In this document: positions 3,308-40,234 of the stretch, piece by piece
How positions within the stretch are numbered: position 1 is the first letter of the stretch
How the letters are laid out: each line of letters opens with the position of its first letter
IMG/VR virus record: IMGVR_UViG_2675903468_000011
Coordinates: 1 to 42,103 of that record
Length of the DNA stretch: 42,103 nucleotides
Reading direction: 5' to 3' (one strand)
From: a virus
Taxonomy: Duplodnaviria; Heunggongvirae; Uroviricota; Caudoviricetes
Notes under the pieces: generated by a model
What the model was told of the DNA's origin: nothing
Database searches by the model: none
Seen by the model: the letters and a program-made list of their open reading frames with translations, nothing else
Translations under genes and position numbers: made by a program

Positions 3308-3969
3308 GCCCCTACATCAAAACCACTGATAAATTCGTTATCCATATCAAAACCAAAAAATTTTGAACCTTCCGATGGAGTTTCCACCGAAGGTGTTTCA
3401 ATGCCACCCGCCCATACCCCGGCGGCTTTAACTGTGAGATACCCCTGTTTAATTGCCGCAATTAACTCACGCGATACATCTGAAATATCAGTATCAGGAA
3501 AGACCCAGACCGATATCGTCATGTCCTGGTTATCGACTATCTGCATTCGCAGCCCGGATCCTGCTGTTGCAGCGTCAAGAATTGCCGGAAGCGAATCATT
3601 CCGTCCATCCCAGTTATTAATCGCAATCTTCGCTTTAAGAATGACACGATAAGTTTCATCGCTGAGGTACATGTATCCGGAATCAGGATCGTATGGTCCC
3701 TGCCATACCCCCTGATCATATCCAAGCCCGTCGGTATCCCAGCTGAAATAGACACCTGAAATAGGCTGGCTGACAACACGGCTACGTCCGATCCACAATC
3801 CCAGAATGTCAAGTTGCACACCAACCGCAGAGTCAATATCAAATGCAGTAATCAGCCCGCTGGTGGCAGCCGCAACATCAATAAGCGGCCGGGTCATCAG
3901 ATCAACATGTGCAAGAAATTTAGGTTTGGTGGCGTGGTAGTTCGTGATTAGTTCGGTGTATTTGCTCAT
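3289..3969 (-). CDS. Baseplate/tail protein, Mu gp48 / YmfQ-like
   Basis: 226 aa, in conserved position between baseplate J-like gene and tail fibre gene; start overlaps upstream gene stop. Confidence 0.5.
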
Positions 3970-24199: not shown

Positions 24200-24473
24200 A
24201 CTTCCCACCTCCGCCATTACGGGGTGTTGTTGAAAGGCGGGCCCTGCGTATACGCCCGTAGGATTGGGTTATGAGCCGTCCTTCGGTGGGCCCTGAATAC
24301 AAAAAAAAGTTCGCCATAGCGAACCTTGTTAAATTTGTTAAAAAAGAAGGTTATTTAACATAATGTACGTTATAGGAACCACACGATCACCGCTCGCAAT
24401 AGATTTGCGATGAAAGGCCTATTTAATCAACTTAAGTGGTCCAGAATGGCGAAATTCGAGTGAATAAAAGGTG

Positions 24474-24521
24474 CATAAAAAAGGGCAAAAACTGCATAGC
24501 GTTTTTTCGCAGCGAAAGCCC
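24474..24521 (-). terminator. Candidate late-leader terminator (tR'-like)
   Basis: Nested hairpin GGGC..CTGC..GCAG..GCCC followed on the minus strand by TTTTTTAT, about 270 bp upstream of the holin. Confidence 0.4.
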
Positions 24522-24645
24522 TGTTTTATTAACTTTTCCTCAGAATGGGGCAATAAAAAAGGCCCCCTTGCGGAAGCCTCTTCGTGATGAACTGTTTTCA
24601 ACAGATATCAGGCTAATCGGCTTTTTGGAATTCCACAACTATTTT

Positions 24646-24987
24646 TTATCTTACCTTGATGCCTGATGCCGTCAGATGTTTACGACAGTCCTGAATACCT
24701 TCGTTATAACCCGCATCGTAGAAGCTATCCGGCTTTGCCTTCAGCGCAGGAAGCGTAACGCTGGTAGCTCTTCGTTCGGCCAGAACACCTGCCTGAAAGA
24801 GTGTCCACATCAACTGAACTGCTGAATCACAGTAAGTAACATCTTCACTGTACAATTCTCGTTCAATCCTGATGCCAAGTTGAGCCTTCATTGATGCGCC
24901 AATATTACCTTTGACCTGCAACGACAGGTCTGGGTACCTCTGTTCCATGAAACTTTCAAATCTGTTGCGAACGCTGATCAGAGCCAT
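24646..24987 (-). CDS. Hypothetical protein between Q and the lysis genes
   Basis: 113 aa ORF; no recognised domain; sits in the Q-to-S interval. Confidence 0.45.
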   Translation of the reverse strand: MALISVRNRFESFMEQRYPDLSLQVKGNIGASMKAQLGIRIERELYSEDVTYCDSAVQLMWTLFQAGVLAERRATSVTLPALKAKPDSFYDAGYNEGIQDCRKHLTASGIKVR

Positions 24988-25018
24988 CTAGTTCCCTTAC
25001 GTGATTGATTGCTGGATA

Positions 25019-25441
25019 TTATGCCGCCGAGCAGCTCCTACGCAAAGTCCTGATAGCCTGAGGCTTTGACTGAACCGACTGATCCATTTCGAGCACCACA
25101 TCCAGCATGGCTAAGCAACCGTCAATAAATCCCTCTGCCGCCTGAAGCCTCTTCAGAACGTGGGTGTGAGATACGCCGAGCTTCTCACCCATCGCCCGCA
25201 CGGGCATGGCCTGGACGTAATGCCACTCAAGGAGCGTGCACAGATACGGATCTTTTTTCTTCAGGCAGCTCATAGCGGAGCTGATGATAAGACCGTCATT
25301 GTCACTGCATTTCAGCCTTCCAGACTGCGTCGCGGGTAGCAGATTCTTAAACCCGGCTGCAACAGGAGGAAAGTAGACGCTACCACCTTCACTCGCTGCC
25401 CAGCCTCCCCAGCGCTCTAAAACCTGTTGAATATTACGCAT
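25019..25441 (-). CDS. Late-gene antiterminator Q-like protein
   Basis: 140 aa; N-terminus MRNIQQVLERWGGWAA... and Cys-containing central region resemble the phage antitermination Q family; position upstream of lysis genes. Confidence 0.65.
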   Translation of the reverse strand: MRNIQQVLERWGGWAASEGGSVYFPPVAAGFKNLLPATQSGRLKCSDNDGLIISSAMSCLKKKDPYLCTLLEWHYVQAMPVRAMGEKLGVSHTHVLKRLQAAEGFIDGCLAMLDVVLEMDQSVQSKPQAIRTLRRSCSAA

Positions 25442-25555
25442 AGCTCTGACCTCTACGTTTTGCTACGAAAAAATTTTCTGAGAACTACGTCTGTTTATCC
25501 GTGGGTGTGGATAACGCAGTTCCGATTCGCATATTGCATGTATCAACATGCAAAA

Positions 25556-25752
25556 AGTTGCTAATGCGGAGTGGAACCACCTGCCCCCACCTGGAACCAC
25601 CTTTTCCTAACCTTTCCCTCAATCGACTTATATATATATATGGGGTTTCTAGTAGAAAGGCGGTTCCAGTGGTTCCAGTGGTTCCGCCCCGCTTGCCACA
25701 AGGTCTGCAAGGTGGAACCACCTTCTCTTTTAGGTGGTTCCGCGTGGTTCCA
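25556..25752. repeat. Replication-origin-like iteron array (GGAACCAC / GTGGTTCC) flanking an AT-rich core
   Basis: About 9 copies of the 8-bp core in both orientations (e.g. 25563, 25584, 25659, 25668, 25703, 25723, 25733), with TATATATATATAT at 25620-25632; overlaps the 3' end of the primase gene. Confidence 0.6.
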
Positions 25753-27916
25753 GCGGTTCCCAAACCTTGCATTTTTTCCCCCCAATTCGCCTTTGGGCAC
25801 GCTTATACCCGCAATTTTGCAAAACATTACTAATTCGCATTTCTTCGCGTTTTCCGATGCGGTCAGGATTTAGCCCAATCGCATCACGCAAAACATCACT
25901 TGCGCGTAAAAATTCGCAATTTCGCGGAAGTTCATTAGTCATCAGGTCGGGCGTGTCGAGCCATTTCTCTACCGTTTCAAGCCAAGCATCCTTGATGGTG
26001 TACTGTTCATGGACACTCGCTGCCAGTTGTTCAGCCTCACGGAACTGGATACCCCCCAGACGCTGAAACACCTCACGAGCCTCAGCCCAAAGTAAAAGGA
26101 GATCTCTTTTTATCGCTTTCACGTCGACTTTCGACACTTCCACGGGGAGCCAGCGACGGTTACCAGTCTTGTCCGCAAGGAATTCGTCCTCATTGGTGGT
26201 ACCAACGAACACCAGGCGACGAGGAAACTGGGTGGCAAACTCCCGGTATTTCGGGATCCAGTTTTCGTGAGTACGCGTCACAAACGCTTTGATTGACTCC
26301 AGCTCTTTGGTATTAAGTCCGCGCAGTTCACCAATCTCTGCCACCAGCCGACCACGCATTTTTCGAGCGAGATCATCGTCTTTTTCGGCAAAAGAGATTT
26401 CAGTAAAAAACGCAGGATCAGGGCTCAGTGCCTCCACTCCGGAAGACTTACCGCAGCCCTGCGGACCAACGAGGATCGGCACCATATCCGCTTTGATGCC
26501 TGGCTCCAGTACTCGCCCCGCCAACGCGGTCCACATGTACATAGACACCGCACGGGTATAAGGCGTGTCGGCAGTACCGAAGTGCGTATGGTAGAAACAT
26601 TCGATGCGCGGCACGCCATCCCACTCCAGTCCGTTCAGCCAGGTGATCGCTGAATCGAATGGTTGTTCATCGGCTGCAAGTAACACCACATCGCGAATAA
26701 GTTCACGACCAACAGGTTTAAATCCCCGCTTTTCCATCGTGATGCGCAGGCGCGCATAATCCGCATCAGTAAACGCCTGCCACTGGCCGGAGCCCGCCGG
26801 GGCGAACATGATTTCGTCACGGAACTGGTCGAAGCGAATATCGATATCCACGAAGTCAGGACGCACAACGGCTTTGGCCGCGTTGCTGATGGTGGCCTCG
26901 ATGCGGCCCCACTTATCGCGCTCGAACGCCGGCAGCGGTAACGGCTCGGTCACTTCGGTGCTGGTAAGGTCTTCGAAATCGTCGTTGCGGATCCCGATGG
27001 CATTAAGGAAATCGCCGTCGTCGCGATGCGCACAACTGGCATGCAGGCATTTAAAATGCCCCTGCTCAAAGCCCGCGGTTCCCGCAGGAAAATAAACTGT
27101 GCTTGTTGGATCGCCCCCGCTACTGTGGCCGTCTTCAAACGGACAGCGGATATATCGTTCACCATTTGCGCCATCCAGCAGCGTCCAGCCATTGGCATCA
27201 AGATATTCAGCTGTATCATCCGTCGCGCCGGGCGTGAATGCTGATCGGTCGCGCATCTTCGTGTTGCCCGCTTCGGTGGTTACCGACACAGGGAGTTGTT
27301 CAGCCAGGCGCTGCCACAGCGTTTCAAGCTGCTCACCAGTAATAGCCGGAGGTTCATCCGGCAAACCGCCGTCCCATTCAATACGCGCGCCGCTGCTGTG
27401 CGTACCGCAGGCAACGAACTGCTGCCCGTTCGCCAGCAACTCGATAATGCCCATATCCCCCGCCAGGCGATGGATACGCTTACGGAAATCACCATCAACG
27501 GCCAGCAGATACAGACACTTATTACTGTTTGCTCGCCAGCGTCGCGGCGGCAACTCACCCAGAAGTTGCACAAGCGTTTTGCGAATATCTGCCTGAATGT
27601 CTTCATCTTCGCTATCACAGTCCAGCGCCAGCCAGCCATGGCCTGTACGCACGCAGATGCCATAATCCGGTTCATTCGACCAGCGGGCAAAATCATGCTC
27701 AGTAACAACATGCCCGGTCCATTGAGCAATACCGGTGACCTGGCGGTCCCGGTTATAGCGACTCGGCGTCTTACCCAACGCTTTCAGTTTACTATCAGGT
27801 GATATGGTCGCACCGGGGTTACATACAACTGGGAGAAGATGATCAGTTCTCCCCAATACCAGGTCGAAATGAAACCACTCATCAGGCGTAGCTCCCCATG
27901 GTTTGCTATCGGACAT
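25730..27916 (-). CDS. Primase/helicase, P4 alpha-like (prim-pol N-terminus plus P-loop NTPase)
   Basis: 728 aa; Walker A GPQGCGKSS; N-terminal acidic prim-pol-like region; adjacent to iteron origin. Confidence 0.75.
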   Translation of the reverse strand: MSDSKPWGATPDEWFHFDLVLGRTDHLLPVVCNPGATISPDSKLKALGKTPSRYNRDRQVTGIAQWTGHVVTEHDFARWSNEPDYGICVRTGHGWLALDCDSEDEDIQADIRKTLVQLLGELPPRRWRANSNKCLYLLAVDGDFRKRIHRLAGDMGIIELLANGQQFVACGTHSSGARIEWDGGLPDEPPAITGEQLETLWQRLAEQLPVSVTTEAGNTKMRDRSAFTPGATDDTAEYLDANGWTLLDGANGERYIRCPFEDGHSSGGDPTSTVYFPAGTAGFEQGHFKCLHASCAHRDDGDFLNAIGIRNDDFEDLTSTEVTEPLPLPAFERDKWGRIEATISNAAKAVVRPDFVDIDIRFDQFRDEIMFAPAGSGQWQAFTDADYARLRITMEKRGFKPVGRELIRDVVLLAADEQPFDSAITWLNGLEWDGVPRIECFYHTHFGTADTPYTRAVSMYMWTALAGRVLEPGIKADMVPILVGPQGCGKSSGVEALSPDPAFFTEISFAEKDDDLARKMRGRLVAEIGELRGLNTKELESIKAFVTRTHENWIPKYREFATQFPRRLVFVGTTNEDEFLADKTGNRRWLPVEVSKVDVKAIKRDLLLLWAEAREVFQRLGGIQFREAEQLAASVHEQYTIKDAWLETVEKWLDTPDLMTNELPRNCEFLRASDVLRDAIGLNPDRIGKREEMRISNVLQNCGYKRAQRRIGGKKCKVWEPLEPRGTT

Positions 27917-27919
27917 GGG

Positions 27920-28120
27920 TTACGCCTTTTGTCTAGCTGTCACTTCCTGAAAAAGCTTTTCTATCGCACGTACTGTAGAAAAGCGAGGGTCAGAATGAAC
28001 CCCGGTGAGAAGCCGACTAATAGAAGACTGCTTCACGCCTGCAATTTCGGCAATTTGGTTTTGGGTATACCCTGAATCAATCAAGCTTTTGACCATCTCT
28101 TGTGGTGTTAGTCCGGACAT
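27920..28120 (-). CDS. Cro-like HTH regulator
   Basis: 66 aa; helix-turn-helix TQNQIAEIAGVKQSSISRLL; divergent from the CI-like repressor gene; first gene of the minus-strand early operon. Confidence 0.6.
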   Translation of the reverse strand: MSGLTPQEMVKSLIDSGYTQNQIAEIAGVKQSSISRLLTGVHSDPRFSTVRAIEKLFQEVTARQKA

Positions 28121-28261
28121 ATTTAAGTCTCCACTTTCGTCTATAGCGCAAATTTATACGAAAACGGATTATTCAGCAATACAGCAATTCTATATCATCC
28201 TAGATTAAAATATCCGATAACGCATAATCACCGTCCCTGTATACAACATGGATGAATCCAA
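28121..28261. promoter_or_regulatory. Divergent cro/cI promoter-operator region
   Basis: 141-bp AT-rich spacer between divergent HTH regulator genes; motif ATAACGCATAAT recurs downstream of cI (about 29040 and 29061). Confidence 0.4.
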
Positions 28262-28936
28262 ATGATTGATACTACCGATATCCTTTCTCAAAACATCAAG
28301 TACCTGATGGACAAAGCCAAGATAAGCTCGATAACTGAGCTGGCACGTCGGTTACAGCTGAACCAACCAACGCTACACAGGCTGGTATCAGGAGAGGTGA
28401 AAGATCCGAAATACGTAACGTTAAAGCAGATCGCCGACTACTTCCACGTGTCACCAATAGACCTGGCAGAAAGGAGCCTTCAAGAAATGGAGAAAGAGGA
28501 CGCGACAGGTATAAAAACGTATATTTCTCTTAGGTTTAATAAAGTACCTGTTTTGGGAAACACTCAGCTAGGCGTTGGAGGACTTTGGAGCGACACCCAA
28601 TATTCAGTAGGTAGCAGTGATGGTTTCATATACTGGCCGACAAAGGATGAAGATGCATACGCCCTGAAATGTGTTGGTGATTCAATGATGCCTAGAATCA
28701 AAGAGGGTGAGTTCGTAATCGTCGAACCCAACCACGACTACACTCCTGGTGATGAAGTACTTGTGGTTACCCGGGACGGTGAGGTCATGGTTAAAACCTT
28801 CTTGTTCGAACGCGATGGCCTGTTCCATCTAATGTCTGTAAATGAAGATCATCCACCAGTCAGAGTACCACGCGAAAACATTGAAAAAATCCATTACGTG
28901 GCGGGGATCGCCAAATCCGCGCTACGCATGTACTAA
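28262..28936 (+). CDS. CI-like repressor (HTH plus S24 LexA-type autopeptidase domain)
   Basis: 224 aa; N-terminal HTH (ITELARRLQLNQPTLHRLVSG); C-terminal S24 motifs GDSMMP (Ser nucleophile) and downstream Lys (EVMVKTF). Confidence 0.85.
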   Translation: MIDTTDILSQNIKYLMDKAKISSITELARRLQLNQPTLHRLVSGEVKDPKYVTLKQIADYFHVSPIDLAERSLQEMEKEDATGIKTYISLRFNKVPVLGNTQLGVGGLWSDTQYSVGSSDGFIYWPTKDEDAYALKCVGDSMMPRIKEGEFVIVEPNHDYTPGDEVLVVTRDGEVMVKTFLFERDGLFHLMSVNEDHPPVRVPRENIEKIHYVAGIAKSALRMY

Positions 28937-28965
28937 CCTTTACAGACTGATAACTTACTTCTGAT

Positions 28966-28996
28966 CAAACCGCTCTCCACAAGGGCGGTTTTCTTA
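28966..28996 (+). terminator. Rho-independent terminator after cI
   Basis: ACCGCTC..GGGCGGT hairpin followed by TTTTCTTATTT. Confidence 0.55.
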
Positions 28997-29377
28997 TTTG
29001 CAAAATAATTCATTTTCGCATTGACACAAAATCCCATAACGCATATAAATACGGTACCGCATAATTAATGCGTTTTTTAATACCAGCTCTTTAACAAACT
29101 GAACCGCGTGACAGGTAAGCCGCAGTGCTCCTGGCAAAACGAAATAGCACCCGATGGGATCGAGGTAAGCGCCGAGTCCGTATGCGTACGGTAAGCGTAG
29201 AGGACAACACCGCGACGAGCTGATAAGTCACGCAAATTGAAACGCCCCGATGATGGGGCGTGCAGTGAATTAATCAAAGGCTTCTGGCCTTTTACTAATC
29301 CACTGGCGAAGCACTGTCTAATTAATACAAGTCGAAGCCGCCGAACCACCAAAGTGAACTAAATGAGGAATTACAAG

Positions 29378-29572
29378 ATGCCTAAATATAAACTGGTTAA
29401 TGACCTGGCTATCGGCGACAAAATTGAATTCAGGGGAAAACGGATAATGGAGGTTACCCAAAAAACTGACCGCGACCAGCATAACGTTAGCCTGACTCTA
29501 GTTAACAAACATACAGGTTCTGCGACCAATACTTGTTTTAACCGAATGGATACCGTCGTCCTTCACCCATAA
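29378..29572 (+). CDS. Hypothetical small protein
   Basis: 64 aa from the second ATG, which has a GAGGA Shine-Dalgarno; the track start at 29363 lacks a ribosome-binding site. Confidence 0.4.
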   Translation: MPKYKLVNDLAIGDKIEFRGKRIMEVTQKTDRDQHNVSLTLVNKHTGSATNTCFNRMDTVVLHP

Positions 29573-29608
29573 CAATCCTCTGAATCCTCCATGTAATTGC
29601 TGTGTGTA

Positions 29609-29637
29609 GTCTTTGCCCGCCGCAAGTGACGGGCTTT
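29609..29637 (+). terminator. Rho-independent terminator
   Basis: GCCCGCCGCAAGTGACGGGC hairpin followed by TTTTTTT. Confidence 0.6.
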
Positions 29638-29700
29638 TTTTATGTCTGAAAGCGCACTCGCAACAGCGCGCTCCCCGATATGAAAAAAGGAATACAACCG

Positions 29701-29850
29701 ATGAAACCTGAATACCTCCATCGACTGACGGGGCGCGATGTTCTCCGTTATCGCCGTAAAAACTTCGATTTGATGACCTGTCTGGCCGTTGCCACTGCGC
29801 TCGGTCTGATCATCACTTTCATTCTCCTTGTAGCGAGGACCACAGTATGA
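29701..29850 (+). CDS. Small tail-anchored membrane peptide (49 aa), not in ORF track
   Basis: AAGGAA ribosome-binding site 10 nt upstream; [49 protein letters not shown]: basic N-terminus, single C-terminal TM; stop overlaps start of next gene (ATGA). Confidence 0.45.
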   Translation: MKPEYLHRLTGRDVLRYRRKNFDLMTCLAVATALGLIITFILLVARTTV

Positions 29851-30749
29851 GTTTAGAAACCAGTCTCGAACTTAATAATCAACTTCTGGCACAACATAAT
29901 GCGCTGCTTGAACGTCTTATCCGCACAATGGCATCAGGCATTGTTATGCATCCTGACACGATTTCACGAGTGCAGGAATGTCGGGATACAGCAACTGAAA
30001 CTGAAAATATGTCAGCGGCAATGACACTGGATGATCTGGAGTTCAGCGACGTTATCGCACTGGCTGGTTTCTACCCGGTAGCCACCCCTATCACAGAAGA
30101 CATGCTGCAACGTGCTGTTGCCTACCGTGATGCTGAAGGCGATAAACGAGTTGTTCAGATTGATGCTCTCGACAGCGCATTGCAGGGCGTCAAACGAGCC
30201 AGGGCGCTGCTTAAACCTGCTCTCCTGGACCTGTCCCGTAACATCCTTAAGTTCTGGGACGACCTGCCAACCATCGGCGAGCGACGTGCTTTTGCCGAGC
30301 AGCTACTTGATGCACCTGCGGATGGGCGTGATGAAGTTAAGCCGAAAAAGGCCAGTAACAAGGATGGAGAACGCACGGGGTCGTTTTACGTCAAAAATGT
30401 ATCCGGCACAGCAGCCAGTGAACTCCACACCTTACGCAAGTTGAACGAGATGCTGAAAAAAGGCCATATCGAGATCAACCGTGTTGAGTACCTTCAGCTG
30501 CAGGAAGAATTTGCACGCAGAGACGCAGCAAATTCCAGCCAGAATAATGACGCCAAAGATGACCATACAATTGATTTCGCGGCACTACGCAAACAAGCTG
30601 AAGGGTTGATCCTCCAGTTAGCAAAAGGGGGTTACCGGGCAGAAGCTATTGCAATTCTGGAAAAACAGGGAGCCAGGAAACTTGGTGAAGTAACGGATGA
30701 AAATCTCGCTGAAGTAATCACCCTGGCTGAAAAAGCACTGGAGGGTTAA
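29847..30749 (+). CDS. Hypothetical early protein
   Basis: 300 aa, helical, acidic; first large gene of plus-strand early operon; no recognised domain. Confidence 0.5.
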
Positions 30750-30751
30750 TC

Positions 30752-32053
30752 ATGCCAGACGTTCATGCACAACTTTCTCCATCATCAGCGCATCGATGGA
30801 TGCGCTGCCCAGGAAGTCTGGCGCTGGAGGCCACACAACCAGATAAAGAAACAACTTTTGCAATCGAGGGCACTGCAGCGCACGCGCTTGCTGAAAAAGT
30901 TCTACGAAACAGGCAAAGCCACCCGGAACACTACGCCGGATGCAATGTTTCTATGTTTCTCGGCTCATACCCCCTTCGCGAAAATCCTGATGATACATCT
31001 GGCCCACAGGTGGATGATGAAATGGTCGAAGCCGTTGGCCGGTATGTTGATACGGTCTGGACTCTTGCACAGAATAATGAACTATTGGTTGAACAACGTG
31101 TTGATTTCTCACATATAACGGGTGCGGAAGAATCTTTCGGAACTGCCGACGGCATAATCATCGCTGGTAACGAATTACAAATCCACGACCTGAAATATGG
31201 CAAAGGCGTCCGCATTGATGCAGAACAAAATGAGCAACTACAACTGTATGCTCTGGGTGCGCTCGAACAATTCAGCATGCTGTATGACTTTGAGACTGTA
31301 AGATTATTTATTCACCAGCCAAGGCTCAACCACGTTTCAGAATGGTCGTTAACCGTACAGGAACTTCAGTCTTTCGGTGAACGGGCACAGGAGGCCGCAA
31401 CCAGTGCGATCCTTGTTCTCAATATTGCTGAATGCGAAGGCATTGAGACACTACCGCTGGAAAACTTCATACCTGGAGAAAAACAGTGCCGCTTCTGTAA
31501 AGCAAAAGCTATTTGCACTGCCCAGAAAATGCAGCATTTACAAACAGCGGCCAGCGACTTTGAAGATCTGACAAAGCCTGTCAGCGAAATAATCACCAAT
31601 GCCAGCGCACGAGTACCTCTGTTAACCATTGAGCAGCTTGCGGAGATCTATAGTCAGGCCGACTTTATTGAATCCTGGCTAAAGGCAGTACGGGACCGGG
31701 TTCACAATGAACTCAATGCCGGACATCCGGTACCGGGGTTTAAACTGGTAACAGGAAAACAAGGTAACCGGGCCTGGAGTGATGAAGAGGCAGCTCGCGC
31801 ACTTCTGAAGGACCAGTTCAGGTACAAAACTGAAGAAGTATTCGACTTTAAACTTATTAGTCCCACAAAAGCCGAAAAACTTATCAAAAAGGCCAGTCCG
31901 CGCCGTTGGTCAAAAGTCGAGGCACTGATAACACGAGCTGATGGTAAACCCACCGTCGTTCCCGAGTCAGACCCACGCCCCGCACTCAATATCAACCTTA
32001 TAAATGATTTCGACGACGTATCCGACGATACGCTAACCGCAGACCTCATCTGA
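30752..32053 (+). CDS. PD-(D/E)XK-type nuclease with C-terminal Cys cluster (DUF2800-like)
   Basis: 433 aa; N-terminal [15 protein letters not shown] motif; Cys cluster [10 protein letters not shown] suggestive of Fe-S; upstream of DUF2815-like and DNA polymerase genes. Confidence 0.6.
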
Positions 32054-32068
32054 TTTAAGGAAATACCC

Positions 32069-32617
32069 ATGAAACTGAAGCTGAACAATGTTCGTCTGGC
32101 CTTCCCGTCTCTGTTTGAAGCTAAAACAGTAAACGGCGAAGGCGATCCACGTTTCTCCGCAGTATTTTTAATGTCTCCCAAACACCCACAACTGGAAGAA
32201 ATCCGTAAAGCTATGAAGCAGGTAGCGAAGGAAAAATGGGGGGAGAAGTGGGAGTCCATTTATAACCAGCTGGAGAAAAAACTCAATCTGTGCCTGCATG
32301 ATGGTGATGAAAAAGCAGAGTATGAAGGCTTTCCCGGCAATTTCTTCCTGAACGCTGCTAACAAAGCGCGCCCAGCTGTTCTTGATCGCGATCGTTCGCC
32401 ACTAATTCAGGCTGATGGACGTCCCTATGCAGGGTGCTATGTAAACGCCGTTATCGATATCTGGGCACAGGACAATAATTTCGGTAAACGCATTAATGCC
32501 TCACTCGGCGGAGTCCAGTTCCTGCGAGACGGCGATGCATTCGCTGGCGGCGGAGTGGCAAGCGCTGACGATTTCGACGATATCAGCGAAGGTGCTGATG
32601 CTGAAGCACTGATTTAA
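32069..32617 (+). CDS. DUF2815-like protein (putative ssDNA-binding)
   Basis: 182 aa; N-terminus MKLKLNNVRLAFPSLFEAK; conserved partner of DUF2800 and phage family-A polymerase. Confidence 0.55.
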   Translation: MKLKLNNVRLAFPSLFEAKTVNGEGDPRFSAVFLMSPKHPQLEEIRKAMKQVAKEKWGEKWESIYNQLEKKLNLCLHDGDEKAEYEGFPGNFFLNAANKARPAVLDRDRSPLIQADGRPYAGCYVNAVIDIWAQDNNFGKRINASLGGVQFLRDGDAFAGGGVASADDFDDISEGADAEALI

Positions 32618-32643
32618 AGCATCAATGTATCAGGTCGATAATA

Positions 32644-33243
32644 TCATTTGACCTGATACTTACTTGCATCTACTTTCAATAGCTGTAAATTATACTTATT
32701 TATAACTTCTCGCCCCGGGAAAAGAGTCCAGAACATAAAAACCGTAAACAAACAAAACAACATTACAACAACGCCAAGAACCATATAAACAGTACCCTTA
32801 TTTAGCAACAAACACAGAAATATTAGGCCATACACCAAATAAAAAATAGCTGCAATTTTAGAATACAAGCGATATCGTTTATATTTACCTTTATAACGTA
32901 TAAAAAATCTATCATATTTACATTGAATATGAGGTGCTAAGAACCACCACCGCCAAGATGGCATATCTAATTCAGAATACGTTCTTATATAAAGAATTAA
33001 CGGCCTAAGTTTCAAATTAACCATACCCAAGATGCTTTTTTTGATTTCTCTTTTTATTTCTGCCTTCATAAACTCTAACTCAGAAGGATCAATATACTCC
33101 CGATAATTTTCAAGAATATGTGAGAATTTTGTTGTTTTCGACAAAAACCAACTAACATCATTCAATAATTTATAAACACCCACTGCTGCGGTTATACCTG
33201 GGATTATGAGTCCGACAAGTGCAATAACATCTTTTATTTCCAT
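32644..33243 (-). CDS. Membrane protein, hypothetical (opposite-strand AT-rich insertion)
   Basis: 199 aa; N-terminal TM (VIALVGLIIPGITAAVGVY) and two C-terminal TMs (IAAIFYLVYGLIFLCLLL, VLGVVVMLFCLFTVFMFWTLF); markedly AT-rich; antisense to the surrounding replication operon. Confidence 0.55.
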   Translation of the reverse strand: MEIKDVIALVGLIIPGITAAVGVYKLLNDVSWFLSKTTKFSHILENYREYIDPSELEFMKAEIKREIKKSILGMVNLKLRPLILYIRTYSELDMPSWRWWFLAPHIQCKYDRFFIRYKGKYKRYRLYSKIAAIFYLVYGLIFLCLLLNKGTVYMVLGVVVMLFCLFTVFMFWTLFPGREVINKYNLQLLKVDASKYQVK

Positions 33244-33269
33244 ACAACTAACCCTTCGGAATAAATACC

Positions 33270-35333
33270 ATGTCCAATATACTATGGGGCGACCTGGAAA
33301 CCTATTGCGAAATCCCTATTACGAACGGCACCCATGCGTATGCCGAAGGCGTTGAAGTGATGCTGTTCGCATGGGCTATCAACGACGGGCCAGTAAACGT
33401 ATGGGATATCACTGCTGGTGGCGGTATTCCACACGAATTATACGAAGCAATCGCAGCCTCTGAAACCCTGCTTTATTTCCATAACTCTCACTTCGACCGC
33501 ACCGTTCTGCGTTATGTAATGCCGCGACTGGCACCGCCAGTCGAACGTTGGCGTGACACGATGGTGCAGGCGCTGGCGCACGGTCTCCCGGGGTCTCTGG
33601 GGGAACTCTGCGAAGTACTAGGCGTCCCGCAAGACAAAGCGAAGGACAAAGAAGGTAAAGCGCTGATCCAGCTGTTCTGTAAGCCACGCCCGAAAAACAG
33701 CAAACTGCGTCGGGCCACCAGTAAAACCCACCCGGAAGAATGGCGGCGCTTTGTTGCTTACGCCGGACTGGATATCGAGGCAATGCGCGAAGTCTATAAA
33801 CGTCTGCCGAAGTGGAATTATCAGGGGACAGAGCTGGCGCTCTGGCATCGTGATCAGCAGATCAACGACCGGGGCGTCTGCATGGACATGCAACTCGCGC
33901 GCGCTGCGATCGAAGCGGTAGACCAGGAGCAAAAGCGCCTGGCAAAGCGTACACAGGAAATGACTGATGGCGAAGTGCAGGCAGCCACACAACGGGACGC
34001 GTTGATTAAGCACATCGTTGAATCCTACGGTGTGGAGCTACCAGACATGCAACGCAGTACCCTAGAACGTCGTATAGCCGACCCCGATTTACCATCTGCC
34101 GTGAAAGAACTGCTGGCTATCCGCCTGCAAGCCAGTACTACCAGCACCAGTAAATACAAGGCACTAATGAAAGGCGTAAGCCACGACGGGCGCTTACGCG
34201 GTACGCTACAGTTCTGCGGGGCGTCGCGTACCGGGCGCTGGGCCGGACGGCTATTCCAGCCCCAGAACCTTCCCCGCCCTTCACTAAAACAGGAACAAAT
34301 AGACGAAGGCATCGAAGCACTGAAAGCCGGATGTGCAGACCTGCTGTTTGACAATATCATGGAACTAACCAGTTCAGCGTTACGTGGCTGCATTATCGCG
34401 CCAACAGGCAAAAAACTGGTGGTAAGTGACTTGTCGAACATTGAAGGCCGTATGCTGTCATGGCTGGCAGGAGAAGAATGGAAACTGAATGCATTCAGAG
34501 AGTACGACGCCGGAACGGGTCCGGACTTATATAAACTGGCGTATGCAAAAGCTTTTGATATTGCACCAGATGATGTTGATAAACACATGCGTCAGATCGG
34601 TAAAGTCATGGAACTCGGTCTGGGTTATGGTGGTGGTGTGTCGGCCTTCATCACTTTTGCACTGGTTTACGGTCTCGATCTCGACGAGCTGGCAAACGCT
34701 GCACTGCCAAACATTCCCCGCGATGTTATCCGCGAGGCGAAAAGCTGGTACGGCGAATCGGTTAAACGTAAGTCAACCTACGGGCTTTCTGAACGGGTAT
34801 TTATCGCCTGCGACTCACTTAAACGTCTCTGGCGCAGGGCGCACCCGGCGACCTGCGATTTCTGGTACGAACTGGAGCGCACCGTCCGCACTGCAATCGC
34901 CACACCGCAAAAAACATTGTATTGCGGCTATCTTAAAATCCGCCGCGATGGCGCGTGGCTGCGCATACAGCTACCATCCGGGCGCGCACTCTGCTACCCA
35001 TCCCCGTCCATCGAGAAGGGGAATATCACCTATCAGGGCGTTAACTCCTACTCGCGCAAATGGCAGCGGCTCAAAACCTACGGCGGAAAGCTGGTGGAAA
35101 ACGTCACTCAGGCGGCCGCCCGCGACGTTCTGGCCGGAAACATGCCGCTGATCGAGGATGCCGGTTACAGCATTGTGCTGACGGTACACGATGAGGTGAT
35201 CACCGAAGCGCCGGACACAGACGATTTTAACGATACGGCGCTTTCCGCGCTGCTCTCCACTAACCCCGAATGGGCGCCCGATATCCCGCTGAACGCTGGC
35301 GGCTTCGAGGCGTACCACTACCGTAAGGATTAG
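33270..35333 (+). CDS. Family-A DNA polymerase (3'-5' exonuclease plus polymerase domains)
   Basis: 687 aa; exonuclease-like N-terminus ([10 protein letters not shown]...[12 protein letters not shown]); downstream palm/fingers region ([10 protein letters not shown]...LTVHDEV). Confidence 0.75.
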
Positions 35334-35386
35334 CTGATCGCTGTCATTGCTGCTTTGCTAAATATTGCTTATTTTATAGGAAAATA

Positions 35387-36148
35387 ATGATGCAGGATCT
35401 CAATGAAATGGCTCTCAAATACCCACACCCTGTCGAAACTTTTCGTCAATTTTTAGTCGAATCCGGATTTGATGTTACCGGAGAAGAAAACAAAGCCGGT
35501 CATGATTGTTATCGTTTAAGTAATGGTGCCATCATAACGCTTTACCACACCGGAACGATTTTGATTCAAGGATCACAAGCGGCAAAACCAGAGGTTGAAG
35601 CCATTATTAATGAACACTTGGGTAATGCGCCAGCTCAACGAGTTCAGCCAGCCCTGGTTCAAGAGCCAGCCAAAAAGATTTTCATCGTTCACGGTCACGA
35701 CCATGCAGCAAAAGAGCAGCTTGAGCTCATTCTTCATAAGCTTGGGTTACCTGATCATTTTATTTTGCAGAATACAGGTGGTACTGGACTTACGATAATT
35801 GAAGAACTTGAGCGTGAAATTGGTCAAGGGCAGACAGCGACTCGTTTCGGCATTGTTCTTCTCACTCCCGATGATGTGGGATACTCCAAAAGAGACGGTC
35901 AAGAAGCAGCCCTGCCCAGGGCTCGTCAAAACGTAGTTCTAGAAATGGGGATGTTGTTATCATCACTCGGCCGCAGTAACGTGGTCATCTTGCAGAAGCA
36001 ACACCTTGAACAGCCTTCTGATGCTGCGGGTATTCTTTATCTCAACTTTAATGATCATGTTCGAGAAACTGTACCTCGCTTAATCCAGCGCCTTAAACAG
36101 GCCGGTTTCACATTTAATGAAGCTCAAATAGCGAACGCTTCATCTTAA
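35387..36148 (+). CDS. TIR-like domain protein (N-terminal unknown domain plus C-terminal TIR-like nucleotide-binding fold)
   Basis: 253 aa; C-terminal motifs KKIFIVHGHDHAAKEQLE, GIVLLTPDDVG, RQNVVLEMGMLLSSLGRSNVVIL resemble the bacterial TIR-like (COG4271-type) family from memory; own ribosome-binding site and downstream terminator. Confidence 0.5.
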   Translation: MMQDLNEMALKYPHPVETFRQFLVESGFDVTGEENKAGHDCYRLSNGAIITLYHTGTILIQGSQAAKPEVEAIINEHLGNAPAQRVQPALVQEPAKKIFIVHGHDHAAKEQLELILHKLGLPDHFILQNTGGTGLTIIEELEREIGQGQTATRFGIVLLTPDDVGYSKRDGQEAALPRARQNVVLEMGMLLSSLGRSNVVILQKQHLEQPSDAAGILYLNFNDHVRETVPRLIQRLKQAGFTFNEAQIANASS

Positions 36149-36170
36149 TCAATCATTTTCCTAAAAAGTA

Positions 36171-36196
36171 AAAAGCCCTGCAAATGCAGGGCTTTT
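36171..36196 (+). terminator. Rho-independent terminator
   Basis: GCCCTGCAAATGCAGGGC hairpin followed by TTTTT directly after the TIR-like gene. Confidence 0.7.
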
Positions 36197-36213
36197 TACT
36201 TGAGGTAACCCCT

Positions 36214-36432
36214 ATGTCATTTAAATATCGGGACAGTCCGCTGTACTACCGGACTGCGCGGGAGGCTTTGCGCCTTGAGCAGTCCGGTGAATACGACCTG
36301 GCGGCGAAGGTCTGGGCCAAAGCAAACCGCGAATCACGTAACGAACTTAATCAGGACTGGAGCGAGCGCCGGGCTGATTTTTGCCTGATGCAGAGCATGC
36401 GCGAAAAGCGTAAGGCGGTGGACGATGCCTAA
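36214..36432 (+). CDS. Hypothetical small helical protein
   Basis: 72 aa from ATG preceded by GAGG; the track start at 36184 lies inside the terminator. Confidence 0.4.
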   Translation: MSFKYRDSPLYYRTAREALRLEQSGEYDLAAKVWAKANRESRNELNQDWSERRADFCLMQSMREKRKAVDDA

Positions 36433-36619
36433 CATCGATAATAAAGGGTGGGGTTTTCCCGCCCTGTCGAAAAAAGCGCATTTCTTTAATTCAGGGGAAG
36501 CCATATCGCTATGCGGTAAATGGATGTTCACCGGCATCAGGATTGATGAATGGCATGAACACCCTGAGAACTGCGCTACCTGCATGAAGAAACGCAAAAA
36601 ACAGGAAGGCGAAAAATAA
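36425..36619 (+). CDS. Small Cys/His-containing protein (possible zinc-binding)
   Basis: 64 aa; C-x(n)-H-x-H-x(4)-C-x(2)-C pattern (LCGKW...WHEHPENCATC); overlaps neighbours. Confidence 0.4.
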   Translation: MPNIDNKGWGFPALSKKAHFFNSGEAISLCGKWMFTGIRIDEWHEHPENCATCMKKRKKQEGEK

Positions 36620-36888
36620 TGGCTTACGAACGTGAAAGCCTTATCGAAAAGCACCTCGTCGCCGAAGTGAAAAAGGCTGGCGGGTTGGCCTTTAAGTTCG
36701 TGTCACCCGGTCGCCGCTCGGTACCGGATCGCATTGTCCTGCTCCCCGGCGGTCGCCTCGTTTTCGTTGAATGCAAAGCACCCGGCAAACCACCACGCCC
36801 CGACCAGCTGCGCGAGCACGAACGGCTACGCGCGCTGGGCTTTACCGTGGTGGTACTGGATAGCAAAAATCTGGAGGGGATATTATAA
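36619..36888 (+). CDS. VRR-NUC domain nuclease
   Basis: 89 aa; PD-(D/E)XK-like core (PDRIVLLPGGRLVFVECKAP). Confidence 0.6.
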   Translation: MAYERESLIEKHLVAEVKKAGGLAFKFVSPGRRSVPDRIVLLPGGRLVFVECKAPGKPPRPDQLREHERLRALGFTVVVLDSKNLEGIL

Positions 36889-36889
36889 T

Positions 36890-37450
36890 TTAATCAGTGA
36901 CTTTTTGGTTCTGCTTCTGGTTCTCAAGCATACCTTGAAGTTCAGAATTATCATTTGCGGCAGTTTGCTGATGCTCATGATATTTTTCTTGCGTATAATT
37001 CCTTTCTTTTAACTTTTGTTCATAGTTATTAGAAATAATATCATGACGGTCTTGCAATACTTGTTCAAGTTGATTTTTAAAGTCGTTTATTTTATCTTCG
37101 GAGATCACATTTTTATATTTTTCAATATCACGACGAAGCTCTTTTTCTTTTTTCTTGTTAATACTTAACAACTGTCGATTAACACTGCCTAGTGACCATT
37201 TAAACCCTATCGATTTTATCCAGTGAGCCAAAAACATAGCACAACTAGGAAGTGCTAATAAAAGAAAAGGCTTAATTGAATTTAAATCAGAATCGATATG
37301 TGGGATATGCCCATCCCACGAGGCAACAAGTATGGTCAAAAGCCCTGTGACACCGCCAGCAGCTACATTTGAGAGCAGAGGAACTTTTTCGTAACTATCT
37401 GGCTTAGAGGCGCTACTCAAACGCACCTCCTTTGATTGTTCTTCCAGCAC
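36890..37450 (-). CDS. Membrane protein with C-terminal coiled coil (cassette gene C)
   Basis: 186 aa (alternative TTG start near 37420 after AAGGAGG); two TM segments (VAAGGVTGLLTILVASW, IKPFLLLALPSCAMFLAHWI) then Lys/Glu-rich heptad region; AT-rich. Confidence 0.55.
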   Translation of the reverse strand: MLEEQSKEVRLSSASKPDSYEKVPLLSNVAAGGVTGLLTILVASWDGHIPHIDSDLNSIKPFLLLALPSCAMFLAHWIKSIGFKWSLGSVNRQLLSINKKKEKELRRDIEKYKNVISEDKINDFKNQLEQVLQDRHDIISNNYEQKLKERNYTQEKYHEHQQTAANDNSELQGMLENQKQNQKVTD

Positions 37451-37661
37451 GAATAGCAGTCATCGCAATTTTGTAAAATTCGTCGTCAGAAGAAACATCG
37501 ACTACATCCCGACGAACAGTTCCTTCCGTGTCGATGTATTCAAGTACAAGATGGTGCTTAGATGTAAGCGCAAAGCGTAACCTATCAAACATCATCTTGA
37601 AAACCCAATACAATACAGGAAGAAGGCTAAAAAAAGCCAGCCAGAAAGCAAAAGCAATCAT
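37413..37661 (-). CDS. Small single-pass membrane protein (cassette gene B)
   Basis: 82 aa from ATG preceded by GGGAGGGG; N-terminal TM MIAFAFWLAFFSLLPVLYWVF plus soluble C-terminal domain; stop lies inside the SD/start of gene C. Confidence 0.5.
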   Translation of the reverse strand: MIAFAFWLAFFSLLPVLYWVFKMMFDRLRFALTSKHHLVLEYIDTEGTVRRDVVDVSSDDEFYKIAMTAIRAGRTIKGGAFE

Positions 37662-37683
37662 AGCCCCTCCCCATGTTAGCCTG

Positions 37684-38562
37684 CTATAAGATGCCGTGTA
37701 CTGTAACAACTATGTACGTTTTGTCCAGTGAATTCAAGTTTTCACGAATGAGCAAATCAACGTAGTAGGCATCGCTAAAAACACCGGGCTCTCTTCCAGT
37801 ACTAACACGTTGCAAGAACTCATTATCCTCTATAGATACGCTGATGGTTTCATCGTCATAGTTGACTCGCCAGCCAGTGTTTTTGTCCTTATGGATGGTC
37901 AGAAATGTGATTGGGGCCTCTTCAATCACCCTCTCAGACAAGGATTGCTCGACAGGAACACGCCGATATCTGAAAGGTTCAATACCATCTTCATGTACAT
38001 TAACTAACTCCACCCCTTGCTGGGTTGAAATCTTAAGCGATTCATACCCCTCCTTTTGCAAAGGGTTATGTATTAACTTCGATAACGATTTACGTATGCT
38101 CGGGGAAGCAAGTAAAGGTCGGAAATAGGAAGGAGCTATAATTTCCTCACCATCATCCATAATTATTTTACAATCTCCTTCCGCAGTTAAAGTCAACCGC
38201 CGTATTTGCCTACCATTAATTTGACGAATTAGGTCAATAAGAGTATTTCCTGCGGCAAGCGCGGCTGTGCCTCCGATACCAATAATGCTCAGAATATTCA
38301 AGTGATCAAGCGGATTTTGAATAATATCAATCAAATATTCGAATGAGCCTTCTCTGAATGGCTCAACTTCAACATTAATATTCTCGCTAGTACCATTGAC
38401 AACCAAATTAACTTCTTTCAGCAGGCTATTTAGACCATTTAATGACTCAGTTAAAACATCCAAATCTATTTTATGATCTGCTAGCGCTGGCCCATCATAT
38501 TTAACCACTAGCTTATCTATTATATTTTCTTCTTGCTGAATATCAGTGCTATTTGACGTCAT
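37684..38562 (-). CDS. Hypothetical soluble protein (cassette gene A)
   Basis: 292 aa; AAGGA ribosome-binding site; AT-rich; no recognisable motif; first gene of three-gene minus-strand cassette. Confidence 0.55.
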   Translation of the reverse strand: MTSNSTDIQQEENIIDKLVVKYDGPALADHKIDLDVLTESLNGLNSLLKEVNLVVNGTSENINVEVEPFREGSFEYLIDIIQNPLDHLNILSIIGIGGTAALAAGNTLIDLIRQINGRQIRRLTLTAEGDCKIIMDDGEEIIAPSYFRPLLASPSIRKSLSKLIHNPLQKEGYESLKISTQQGVELVNVHEDGIEPFRYRRVPVEQSLSERVIEEAPITFLTIHKDKNTGWRVNYDDETISVSIEDNEFLQRVSTGREPGVFSDAYYVDLLIRENLNSLDKTYIVVTVHGIL

Positions 38563-38639
38563 AACCGTTCCTTTTTAAGACAATAATTAAAGTTAATCAA
38601 ACCGTTGCTACTTAAATTCACTTATGAGGACACAATAAC

Positions 38640-40037
38640 ATGGCCTATGCTATGTTTTCACCCCGCCCTTATCAAGACCTCATCATCAACCACGAAATAG
38701 ACACCTTGCGCTGCAACATCTGGGCAGGCATGGGTATGGGTAAAACCGTGGCGACGCTCACCACGCTGGAAGATCTCTTTATAGCGGGAGCGGAGACTCA
38801 GCCCGCGCTGGTTCTCGCGCCGCTGCGCGTGGCGGCCAGCACCTGGCCGGATGAAGCGGTTAAATGGGGGCATCTGCGCAATATCGAGGTGCAGCCGATT
38901 GTCGGTAATGCCAAAGCGCGCGCGGCGGCGCTGGCGAACAGTAACGCCAGCGTGTTTACCATCAACTACGACAATCTGGTCTGGCTGGTCGAAGAGCTGG
39001 GCGGCCGCTGGCCGTTCGGTACCGTCATCCCCGACGAAAGCACCCGACTGAAATCCTTCCGGCTGCGCGGGGGCGGTAAGCGCGCGGCGGCGCTGGGCAA
39101 GGTGGCGCATAAGTATGTCCGGCGCTGGATGAATCTCACCGGTACACCAGCGCCGAATGGCCTGGTTGATTTGTGGGGGCAGGCGTGGTTTGTGGATCAG
39201 GGGCAGCGCCTCGGGCGAACTTACGGCGCCTTTACCTCCCGCTGGTTCAACTCAATTCAGTTTCCGGGGCAGAGCTGGACGAAGCTGGAGCCTTTCGCAC
39301 ACTCGCAGGACGAAATACAGCGTGCACTGGCCGACGTGACTATCTCCCTTGATGCGGCCGACTGGTTCGATATCAAAGAGCCCATCCATAACGTGATCCG
39401 CGTGGACATGCCGCCGAAGGCACGCCAGCAGTATCGTGAAATGGAAAAGGAAATGTTTCTCGAACTGAACGGCGAAGGCATCGAAGCGCCGAACGCTGCG
39501 GCAAAGACAGTGAAGTGTCTGCAAATTGCCAGCGGCGCAGTGTACACCGACGACGCCGGGAGCTGGTCAGAACTGCACGACGCGAAGCTGCAGGCGCTGG
39601 ACAGTATTCTCACCGAAGCAGCTGGCGCACCGGTGCTGGTGGCCTATCACTGGAAACACGATCTTGAACGCTTGCTTAAAGCATTCCCTCGCGGTCGTCA
39701 CCTCGACCAGGATCCACAGACACTGCGCGACTGGAATTCAGGAAAGATTCCTGTTCTCTTTGCACACCCTGCCAGCGCGGGCCACGGCCTGAACATGCAG
39801 GACGGCGGGAATATACTGGTATTTTTCTCACACTGGTGGGACCTGGAGCAGTATCAGCAAATTATTGAACGTATCGGCTCAACCAGACAGATACAGGCCG
39901 GACACAATCGTCCGGTATTTATTCACCACATTATTGCTGCCGACACTATGGACGAAATGGTGATGGAGCGGCGCAACTCAAAACGAACAGTGCAGGACAT
40001 CCTGCTCGATGCCATGAAAAAGAGAGGTATAGCATGA
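38640..40037 (+). CDS. SNF2/DEAD-like helicase
   Basis: 465 aa; Walker A GMGMGKT, DEAH-like box VIPDESTRLK, motif LTGTPAPNG; higher GC than neighbours. Confidence 0.8.
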   Translation: MAYAMFSPRPYQDLIINHEIDTLRCNIWAGMGMGKTVATLTTLEDLFIAGAETQPALVLAPLRVAASTWPDEAVKWGHLRNIEVQPIVGNAKARAAALANSNASVFTINYDNLVWLVEELGGRWPFGTVIPDESTRLKSFRLRGGGKRAAALGKVAHKYVRRWMNLTGTPAPNGLVDLWGQAWFVDQGQRLGRTYGAFTSRWFNSIQFPGQSWTKLEPFAHSQDEIQRALADVTISLDAADWFDIKEPIHNVIRVDMPPKARQQYREMEKEMFLELNGEGIEAPNAAAKTVKCLQIASGAVYTDDAGSWSELHDAKLQALDSILTEAAGAPVLVAYHWKHDLERLLKAFPRGRHLDQDPQTLRDWNSGKIPVLFAHPASAGHGLNMQDGGNILVFFSHWWDLEQYQQIIERIGSTRQIQAGHNRPVFIHHIIAADTMDEMVMERRNSKRTVQDILLDAMKKRGIA

Positions 40038-40234
40038 GCGAGAAACCCGACGATTTACTCACCCCGGATGAAGTATGCCAAAAGTTAGGTATTACACAGA
40101 AAACGCTATGTGAGTGGAATATTAAGCATCGTCATCGGGCTATCCTGGCACCAATTCGTTTCAGTGCAAAAGTAGTTCGTTATGAGCGCCGAAATGTCGA
40201 CGCTTTTATTCAAAAATGTCGCAGCCAGTATTAA
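40034..40234 (+). CDS. AlpA-family HTH regulator (excisionase-like)
   Basis: 66 aa; LTPDEVCQKLGITQKTLCEWN helix-turn-helix; adjacent and convergent to integrase. Confidence 0.6.
   Translation: MSEKPDDLLTPDEVCQKLGITQKTLCEWNIKHRHRAILAPIRFSAKVVRYERRNVDAFIQKCRSQY

Follow-up and report, generated by a model that had tools for sequence, protein, structure and literature searches.

A probable iteron-type replication origin beside the primase/helicase gene of a temperate prophage family, and its relation to the helicase wing

Described origins beside helicase-initiators and the element considered here

The closest described systems are the origins of the Staphylococcus aureus pathogenicity islands and related satellites. 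The SaPI Rep proteins bind, through a C-terminal winged helix, iterons lying immediately downstream of rep; these origins contain six to twelve iterons of 5-6 bases, with an AT-rich centre and at least two opposed iterons on each side of it, and Rep is self-loading, that is, it acts without a separate loader (PMC9371898). The same rep-adjacent layout drives plasmid replication in the E. coli PICI EcCICFT073 and has been described as exclusive to PICIs (PMC6092414).

The DNA analysed here, referred to as the window (42,103 bases), is an E. coli prophage of about 40 kb: a complete temperate phage that encodes its own replisome. It carries an array of octamers which, as in the SaPI/PICI ori, lies immediately 3' of the gene of the initiator-helicase. 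The nine good copies and one degenerate copy are within the range of six to twelve, and a (TA)6T centre has three minus-strand copies on one side and two to three plus-strand copies on the opposite side. The initiator is an SF3 helicase homologous to SaPI1 Rep1, and the SaPI/PICI initiators are themselves sometimes fused to a primase (Rep1, PriRep5). The differences are that the iterons of the window measure 8-9 bases rather than 5-6, that three of them are inside the rep coding sequence and an extra sub-cluster of four is present, that the primase domain is a Prim-Pol, and that the element is not a satellite but a prophage with virion genes and a DNA polymerase of its own. We consider the array a probable member of the known class of rep-adjacent iteron/AT-rich origins of SF3 helicase-initiators.

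The preliminary description compared the locus with P4, naming the protein "P4 alpha-type" and the arrangement a mirror of the P4 ori; both points have to be withdrawn. P4 alpha likewise joins a primase and an SF3 helicase in one polypeptide, and work by Ziegelin/Lanka and by Yeo et al. reportedly assigns to its C terminus a winged-helix domain that binds the origin. The type-1 repeats of P4 are octamers in both orientations at a spacing of 9-10 bases, a likeness of style only, as the sequences differ (GGTGAACA in P4, GGAACCAC in the window). Homology to alpha was rejected: the BLASTP E value is 0.69, the primase of the window is of the Prim-Pol/AEP type (PF09250) and that of alpha of the toprim type, and the helicase belongs to the VapE family. 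The cluster directly after the alpha stop codon is crr, with ori 2 kb upstream of alpha, so a position immediately 3' of the gene mirrors crr and not ori; in addition, P4 depends on two sites at a distance from each other, ori and crr, and only one cluster is present in the window. The relation to P4 is one of analogy, in the logic of the domains and the style of the repeats, and not of membership in its family.

Iteron plasmids (Rep_3/pi/TrfA) and lambda O also present repeated initiator sites beside an AT-rich unwinding element, and the lambda origin is inside the initiator gene. Their iterons, however, have 17-22 bases and are direct, whereas the units in the window have 8-9 bases and both orientations; none of their initiators is a helicase, and DnaB has to be loaded, whereas the initiator of the window is itself a helicase; and the DnaA box near the array appears not to be conserved with it. 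Pfam revealed no Rep_3 or O-type domain in the neighbouring proteins. RepA of N15, a linear plasmid-prophage, is a multifunctional Prim-Pol and helicase initiator of about 1,300 aa; the origin is fully internal to the RepA gene, in its 3' part.

The 701 bases around the array are 99-99.6% identical to chromosomal prophages in O55:H7 DEC5B, O103:H2 12009 and others, and a match to this region is found in 140 of the 5,426 complete E. coli genomes. The genes relevant to the further discussion are as follows.

29847-40400, leftward replisome operon, placed by correspondence with 24357-35120 of the DEC5B prophage (L105)
28262-28936, CI-like repressor gene, divergent from the minus-strand operon
27920-28120, minus strand, Cro-like HTH gene
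25730-27916, minus strand, primase/helicase gene of 728 aa, ending in ...KVWEPLEPRGTT and the stop
25019-25441, minus strand, Q antiterminator gene

On the minus strand the order is the Cro-like gene, the primase/helicase gene, a gap of 288 bases, Q, and then the lysis and terminase genes. The leftward operon encodes a family A DNA polymerase (PolA), DUF2800, DUF2815, VRR-NUC and an SNF2 helicase and is followed by the integrase gene next to the host yfhL; the other genes form a myovirus-like virion module beside an integrase, and terminase, head, tail, baseplate and lysis genes are all found in the prophage. Such a self-contained replisome is unusual for a lambdoid-style regulatory layout. 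Since the prophage has PolA, DUF2815, DUF2800, VRR-NUC and SNF2 genes of its own, it needs its own initiation site.

The array, its core and the protein beside it

The exact octamer GGAACCAC occurs nine times in the window against an expectation of 1.12, and none of 100 shuffles reaches nine; seven of these copies are within 25573-25751. The pattern GGAACCRC adds the copies at 25660-25667 and 25753-25760, which gives nine GGAACCAC/GGAACCGC copies in 188 bases (25573-25760). With up to one mismatch allowed, the density is 36.6 per kb in 25530-25775 versus 0.57 per kb outside, and the 42-kb window contains no second cluster, the maximum in any other 250-base stretch being two copies. Thus, the initial observation of at least nine octamers, direct and inverted, on both sides of an AT tract is borne out by the scan, which excludes a similar density elsewhere; the same is true of its placing of the last iterons within the primase coding sequence. 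The interval proposed for the array, 25556-25752, was correct as to location, but its right end cuts off the last repeat, and the module occupies about 25536-25773. Its components are listed here.

25760-25774, minus strand, codons 715-719 (K-C-K-V-W), the wing residues tracking iteron class; left boundary, in gene direction, of the swappable cassette
25734-25760, minus strand, three in-gene iterons GGAACCGC, GGAACCAC and GGAACCAC, encoding the tail EPLEPRGTT
25730-25732, minus strand, stop codon of the primase/helicase gene
25714-25721, plus strand, single inverted iteron, in the same place in relatives
25660-25685, minus strand, three tandem iterons with a 9-base period, on one side of the AT-rich centre
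25601-25659, central core between the iteron sets, holding the TA tract and the GGAAAGGTT box
25629-25641, TA tract TATATATATATAT, (TA)6T or about (TA)7, the proposed melting site
25609-25617, box reading AACCTTTCC on the plus strand and GGAAAGGTT on the gene strand
25572-25601, plus strand, three 10-base units on the opposite side of the centre (good copies 25573-25580 and 25593-25600, degenerate copy 25583-25590)

Copies with the GGAACCAC reading on the plus strand are those at 25573, 25593 and 25714, and with this reading on the minus strand those at 25660, 25669, 25678, 25734, 25744 and 25753. In both orientations the unit has 8-9 bases, and copies within a cluster are spaced by 9-10 bases. 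The tenth, degenerate unit GCCCCCAC is in register between two good copies, and some relatives have a proper repeat at its position. The whole array (25572-25760) reads, in gene direction, as three direct iterons in the last codons, the stop codon, one inverted iteron, a spacer, three tandem iterons, the 59-base core and three inverted units. The iteron at 25714-25721 and the last in-gene iteron form a 10-base inverted repeat with an 8-base spacer; 28 bases (36 from start to start) separate the single inverted iteron from the tandem triplet. For the octamer itself, the literature searched yielded nothing but primer sequences.

In the core, the TATATATATATAT tract is the least stable of the 42,089 15-mers in the window (nearest-neighbour dG -11.0, z 3.8), although the AT-rich stretch is short and at the 40-base scale the AT-richness of the core is only moderate (rank 236 in the window). 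The core is conserved among loci that differ in their iterons, and of 83 unique origins 82 contain (TA)3 or longer. Regardless of iteron class, 74 of the 83 have a GGAAAGGTT-like box, mostly 9-11 bases from the TA tract, and all 65 exact GGAAAGGTT copies in the loci are within the origin region. It is not a universal element, as YeP4, L094, L095, L098 and L101 have other TATATA-rich cores instead. The box could be a priming or loading signal for a conserved part of the protein.

The four gene-end iterons (three direct and one inverted) have no AT-rich centre of their own. This, and the P4 arrangement, in which crr is the cluster immediately 3' of alpha and ori is 2 kb beyond the other side of the gene, may suggest that the helicase binds the array, the latter serving as an auxiliary cis element (crr-like, for copy control or handcuffing) with the true start elsewhere in the prophage. 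We consider this improbable: a second repeat cluster is missing from the window, and the array has a (TA)7 centre between opposed repeats, as in the functional SaPI/PICI origins.

The protein consists of a Prim-Pol (AEP) domain, a Zn-binding region, a VapE-family SF3 helicase and a predicted C-terminal winged helix. Pfam reports PF05272 (VapE, E 2.3e-60) and PF09250 (Prim-Pol, E 2e-10), and the PHROG matches are 256 and 1156. PDB entry 7PDS (SaPI1 Rep1 with DNA) matches aa 394-657 with E 9.5e-34; the HMMER alignment ends at residue 657, short of the C-terminal domain. The latter was modelled with AlphaFold2 (alignment A2), the homologues for the alignment, as well as the chimera protein P0001 mentioned below, coming from a search with the 156-aa C-terminal fragment, which returned mostly partial proteins. 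The predicted elements in the DNA are as follows.

25754-25915, minus strand, predicted winged-helix codons (about aa 668-721)
25754-25807, minus strand, predicted wing hairpin (aa 704-721)

The model has a helix-helix-helix-beta hairpin topology, with helices at 672-680 and 689-701, strands at 704-711 and 714-721, a GG turn at 712-713 and a block pLDDT of 82-88. The best Foldseek matches in the PDB are all winged-helix domains with a probability of up to 0.94, yet their E values of 0.02 or higher are not significant; neither SaPI Rep nor the P4 origin-binding domain was retrieved in this search.

Some homologues end before the in-gene repeats (..FEPV and the stop), so the tail they encode is optional. 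In two IMG/VR contigs (L040 and L050) the tail is ...EPLEPPKREGGSTLQAL and not ...EPLEPRGTT with the stop, a frameshifted read-through across the inverted iteron; as judged from these sequences, the tail past residue 721 tolerates change. Two Klebsiella pneumoniae proteins named "phage antitermination protein Q" (P0015 and P0026) contain the Q domain PF06323 and, at 85-90% identity, also match the helicase in its C-terminal part. Such proteins point to ORFs in some Klebsiella prophages that are fused or misannotated and continue from the 3' end of the helicase gene into Q.

Related loci and the exchange of repeats with the wing

A genome scan and a scan of viral contigs yielded about 100 loci, 94 of which were usable for tabulating wing against iteron. 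The layout 3' of the homologous gene is conserved in all 94 and in APSE-2: two to three gene-end repeats, one inverted, a spacer, three tandem with a 9-base period, a TATATA core and two to three inverted. The tandem triplet is its most conserved feature in the 94 loci. The layout is shared by Enterobacterales, Orbales, Burkholderiales, Yersinia phage YeP4 and APSE-2; the genera include Trabulsiella, Pluralibacter, Pectobacterium, Xenorhabdus, Photorhabdus and Gilliamella/Orbaceae, and 80 IMG/VR viral contigs have it as well. In 11 representative loci the locus's own repeat is present in 5-11 copies in the origin versus 0-2 elsewhere. No literature description of this origin family was found.

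The repeat itself differs between loci. YeP4, whose protein is 73% identical, has the layout with identical spacings of 9 and 75 bases and with TAGACAACC in place of GGAACCAC. The repeat classes number at least 11, namely those tabulated below, GTCACCAC and others, and within each locus all copies change together. The gene downstream of the array also varies: it is Q in some loci and unrelated in others, which means that the array travels with the helicase gene.

Several peculiarities of individual loci can be mentioned. The Photorhabdus caribbeanensis locus (L021, 3700-4075) has an expanded origin with 11 copies of GGAACCACC and extra pairs on both flanks; here and in several other loci primase and helicase are encoded by two separate genes, the match beginning at aa 307-316. 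In APSE-2 (L107, NC_011551) a "P4 hypothetical protein" is annotated at 3424-3645, atop the AT-rich centre and iterons and between the P3 helicase and the Q-like P5; it is probably not a gene.

The repeat class is related to residues 715-719 of the wing, and among the 94 loci no wing pentamer maps to two classes.

Wing KCKVW or KSKVW, repeat class GGAACCAC
Wing MTRIF or VTRIF, repeat class GTACCAAC
Wing KMRIF, repeat class GTCCCAAC
Wing LMKVW, repeat class GTTACCAC
Wing VQRVW, repeat class GTAACCAC
Wing VLKVW, repeat class GTATCCAC
Wing MTKAW, repeat class GwAGCCAC
Wing QIRVW, repeat class TAGACCAC
Wing QQRIF, repeat class TAGACAAC
Wing SQRVY, repeat class GTAACAAC

Among 69 unique proteins, the per-column information on iteron class peaks at residues 716 (0.76) and 715 (0.71), and the class completely determines residue 719; the automatic labelling split GTACCAAC into two labels in this analysis, which lowers the association scores and does not raise them. 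Elsewhere in the last 400 aa the mean is 0.01-0.11, with almost no class information in residues 329-708. The high scores of residues 720-728 are trivial, since these residues are encoded by the repeats. Simple rules based on one residue were considered and rejected. W719 is paired with C at repeat position 6 in seven classes, and the rule by which W corresponds to C, and F or Y to A, fits the first ten classes; it is broken by APSE-2, which has W with A. A rule for K/R717 is likewise broken by APSE-2.

The wing codons are 0-60 bases from the first iteron, and this adjacency means that physical linkage alone would give some association. Natural exchanges between prophages are informative here. 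In an E. coli prophage (L054) the sequence up to codon 714 matches the window at about 100% identity, and so does the stretch running from about 25536 across the Q flank; inside 25536-25773 every repeat of L054 is GTACCAAC and its wing is MTRIF (compare the chimera protein P0001). The breakpoint falls after codon 714, and the swap thereby gives the bounds of the segment.

25536-25773, wing-plus-origin cassette of about 240 bases, bounds from the natural swap in L054

The wing and tail of the helicase are the sole coding sequence inside it. In five cross-class pairs the nucleotide identity is 95-100% over the 150 bases leading up to codon 715 and, for the preceding 450 bases, 92-100%. These sharp breakpoints would argue against pure linkage as the source of the association between wing and class.

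The opposite case is the DEC5B prophage (L105), in which CI is 27% identical and Cro is different, yet the helicase is 99% and the origin 99.6% identical to those of the window. This prophage is heteroimmune, the CI and Cro genes being replaced (22621-23577 in L105, 27920-28936 in the window). As the adjacent helicase gene and origin are kept there, a recombination junction between cro and the helicase gene is implied. DEC5B keeps the repeats with new CI and Cro, and L054 keeps the Q flank with new repeats; hence the repeats follow the helicase wing and not the immunity genes or Q.

These exchanges bear on a possible role of the repeats in transcription, as operators or as an RNA hairpin controlling read-through from the early operon into Q. 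The replication gene and Q, which have the array between them, are on the same strand, and as mRNA the inverted repeats at the stop codon would form a stable hairpin (-33.4 kcal/mol, z -3.4). The hairpin, however, has no U tract, and the scan of 24900-26000 found neither a sigma-70 promoter nor a minus-strand terminator; its only terminator-like match is the iteron palindrome on the plus strand, which is wrong for the operon. An Rfam scan of 25300-25900 gave no match to the array. In addition, the array is also found 3' of the helicase gene in loci where a gene other than Q comes next (L003-L005, L008-L011), L054 has different repeats beside an identical Q and Q flank, and in DEC5B the repeats stay constant when CI and Cro change. 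We therefore regard transcriptional control as very unlikely. The Rfam scan also gave a sub-threshold c4-a1b1 match on the minus strand within the Q gene (25336-25376; 16.3 bits versus the gathering threshold of 46.7, E 0.17), which is most likely due to chance.

Finally, one may ask whether the array is a site for some other protein, involved in packaging or partition or supplied by the host, and linked to the helicase gene by chance. The adjacency of wing codons and repeats, by which covariation could reflect linkage, is compatible with this, as is a perfect DnaA box 60 bases from the array.

25506-25514, minus strand, perfect DnaA box TTATCCACA, in the inverted repeat TTATCC-N8-GGATAA (25497-25518)

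This is the sole exact DnaA box in the window, and it lies between the cassette and the start of Q. It is common to the window and L054 along with the Q flank; since it is outside the swapped cassette, it is doubtful that the box belongs to the origin. Inspection by eye of the downstream regions displayed for the other relatives, with or without Q following, revealed no exact DnaA box. Against the involvement of another protein, the helicase wing and tail are all that the swapped cassette encodes, the terminase genes are 2.5 kb from the array and outside the conserved neighbourhood, and no partition genes were seen among those of the prophage. We give this explanation the least credence of the three, hardly any at all.

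The proposed origin and its meaning for the prophages

The conserved layout, the concerted change of the repeats, their tracking of the wing and the homology to SaPI1 Rep1 strongly support the reading of the array as an origin. The earlier suggestion of an iteron-type origin overlapping the 3' end of the primase/helicase gene is thus upheld by comparison of sequences (the 94 loci, APSE-2 and SaPI1 Rep1). We believe with good confidence that the array is the replication origin of the prophage, with initiation of the theta type, paired with the adjacent gene of a self-loading primase/helicase-initiator.

By analogy with the SaPI system, from which binding, melting and priming are extrapolated, initiation may proceed as follows. 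The C-terminal winged helix would recognise the 8-9-base iterons mainly via its beta-hairpin wing (715-719), and a spacing of 9-10 bases, about one helical turn, would put the iterons on one face of the DNA. The opposed triplets flanking the centre would position two SF3 hexamers, the (TA)7 tract would melt, and each hexamer of the pair would load around one single strand. The N-terminal Prim-Pol would then provide the primers to be extended by the phage PolA. The gene-end sub-cluster is presumed to be an auxiliary binding site; it may add affinity or couple the end of rep transcription/translation to the occupancy of the origin.

A further proposal is that the wing residues 715-719 and the iterons constitute a self-contained specificity cassette of about 240 bases, diversified in nature into at least 11 mutually distinct replicon specificities and exchanged between otherwise identical prophages. 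We advance it tentatively, with a confidence falling somewhat short of even.

The kind of origin is already known, and the observation extends existing knowledge without overturning it. A probable origin with exact boundaries can now be assigned to the prophage family found in the 140 E. coli genomes (O55:H7 and O103:H2 included) and to the APSE phages of aphid symbionts; existing annotations give the region there as intergenic or as a hypothetical gene. The layout called exclusive to PICIs (PMC6092414) is also present in full-size temperate phages with their own replisome, and since the element in the window is a full phage, this exclusivity does not hold.

The main interest is in a clean natural system for origin specificity and not in the element being of a new kind. 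The natural exchanges of the cassette reduce the candidate determinant of specificity to five wing residues and offer a system for studying how a winged helix reads DNA and how replicon incompatibility arises between prophages. Should a few wing residues suffice to set the specificity for 8 bases, the family would serve as a natural look-up table of DNA recognition by the wing and would supply orthogonal origin/initiator pairs. If the exchange of self-contained cassettes is true, co-resident prophages would thereby avoid competing for each other's initiators or being hijacked by them.
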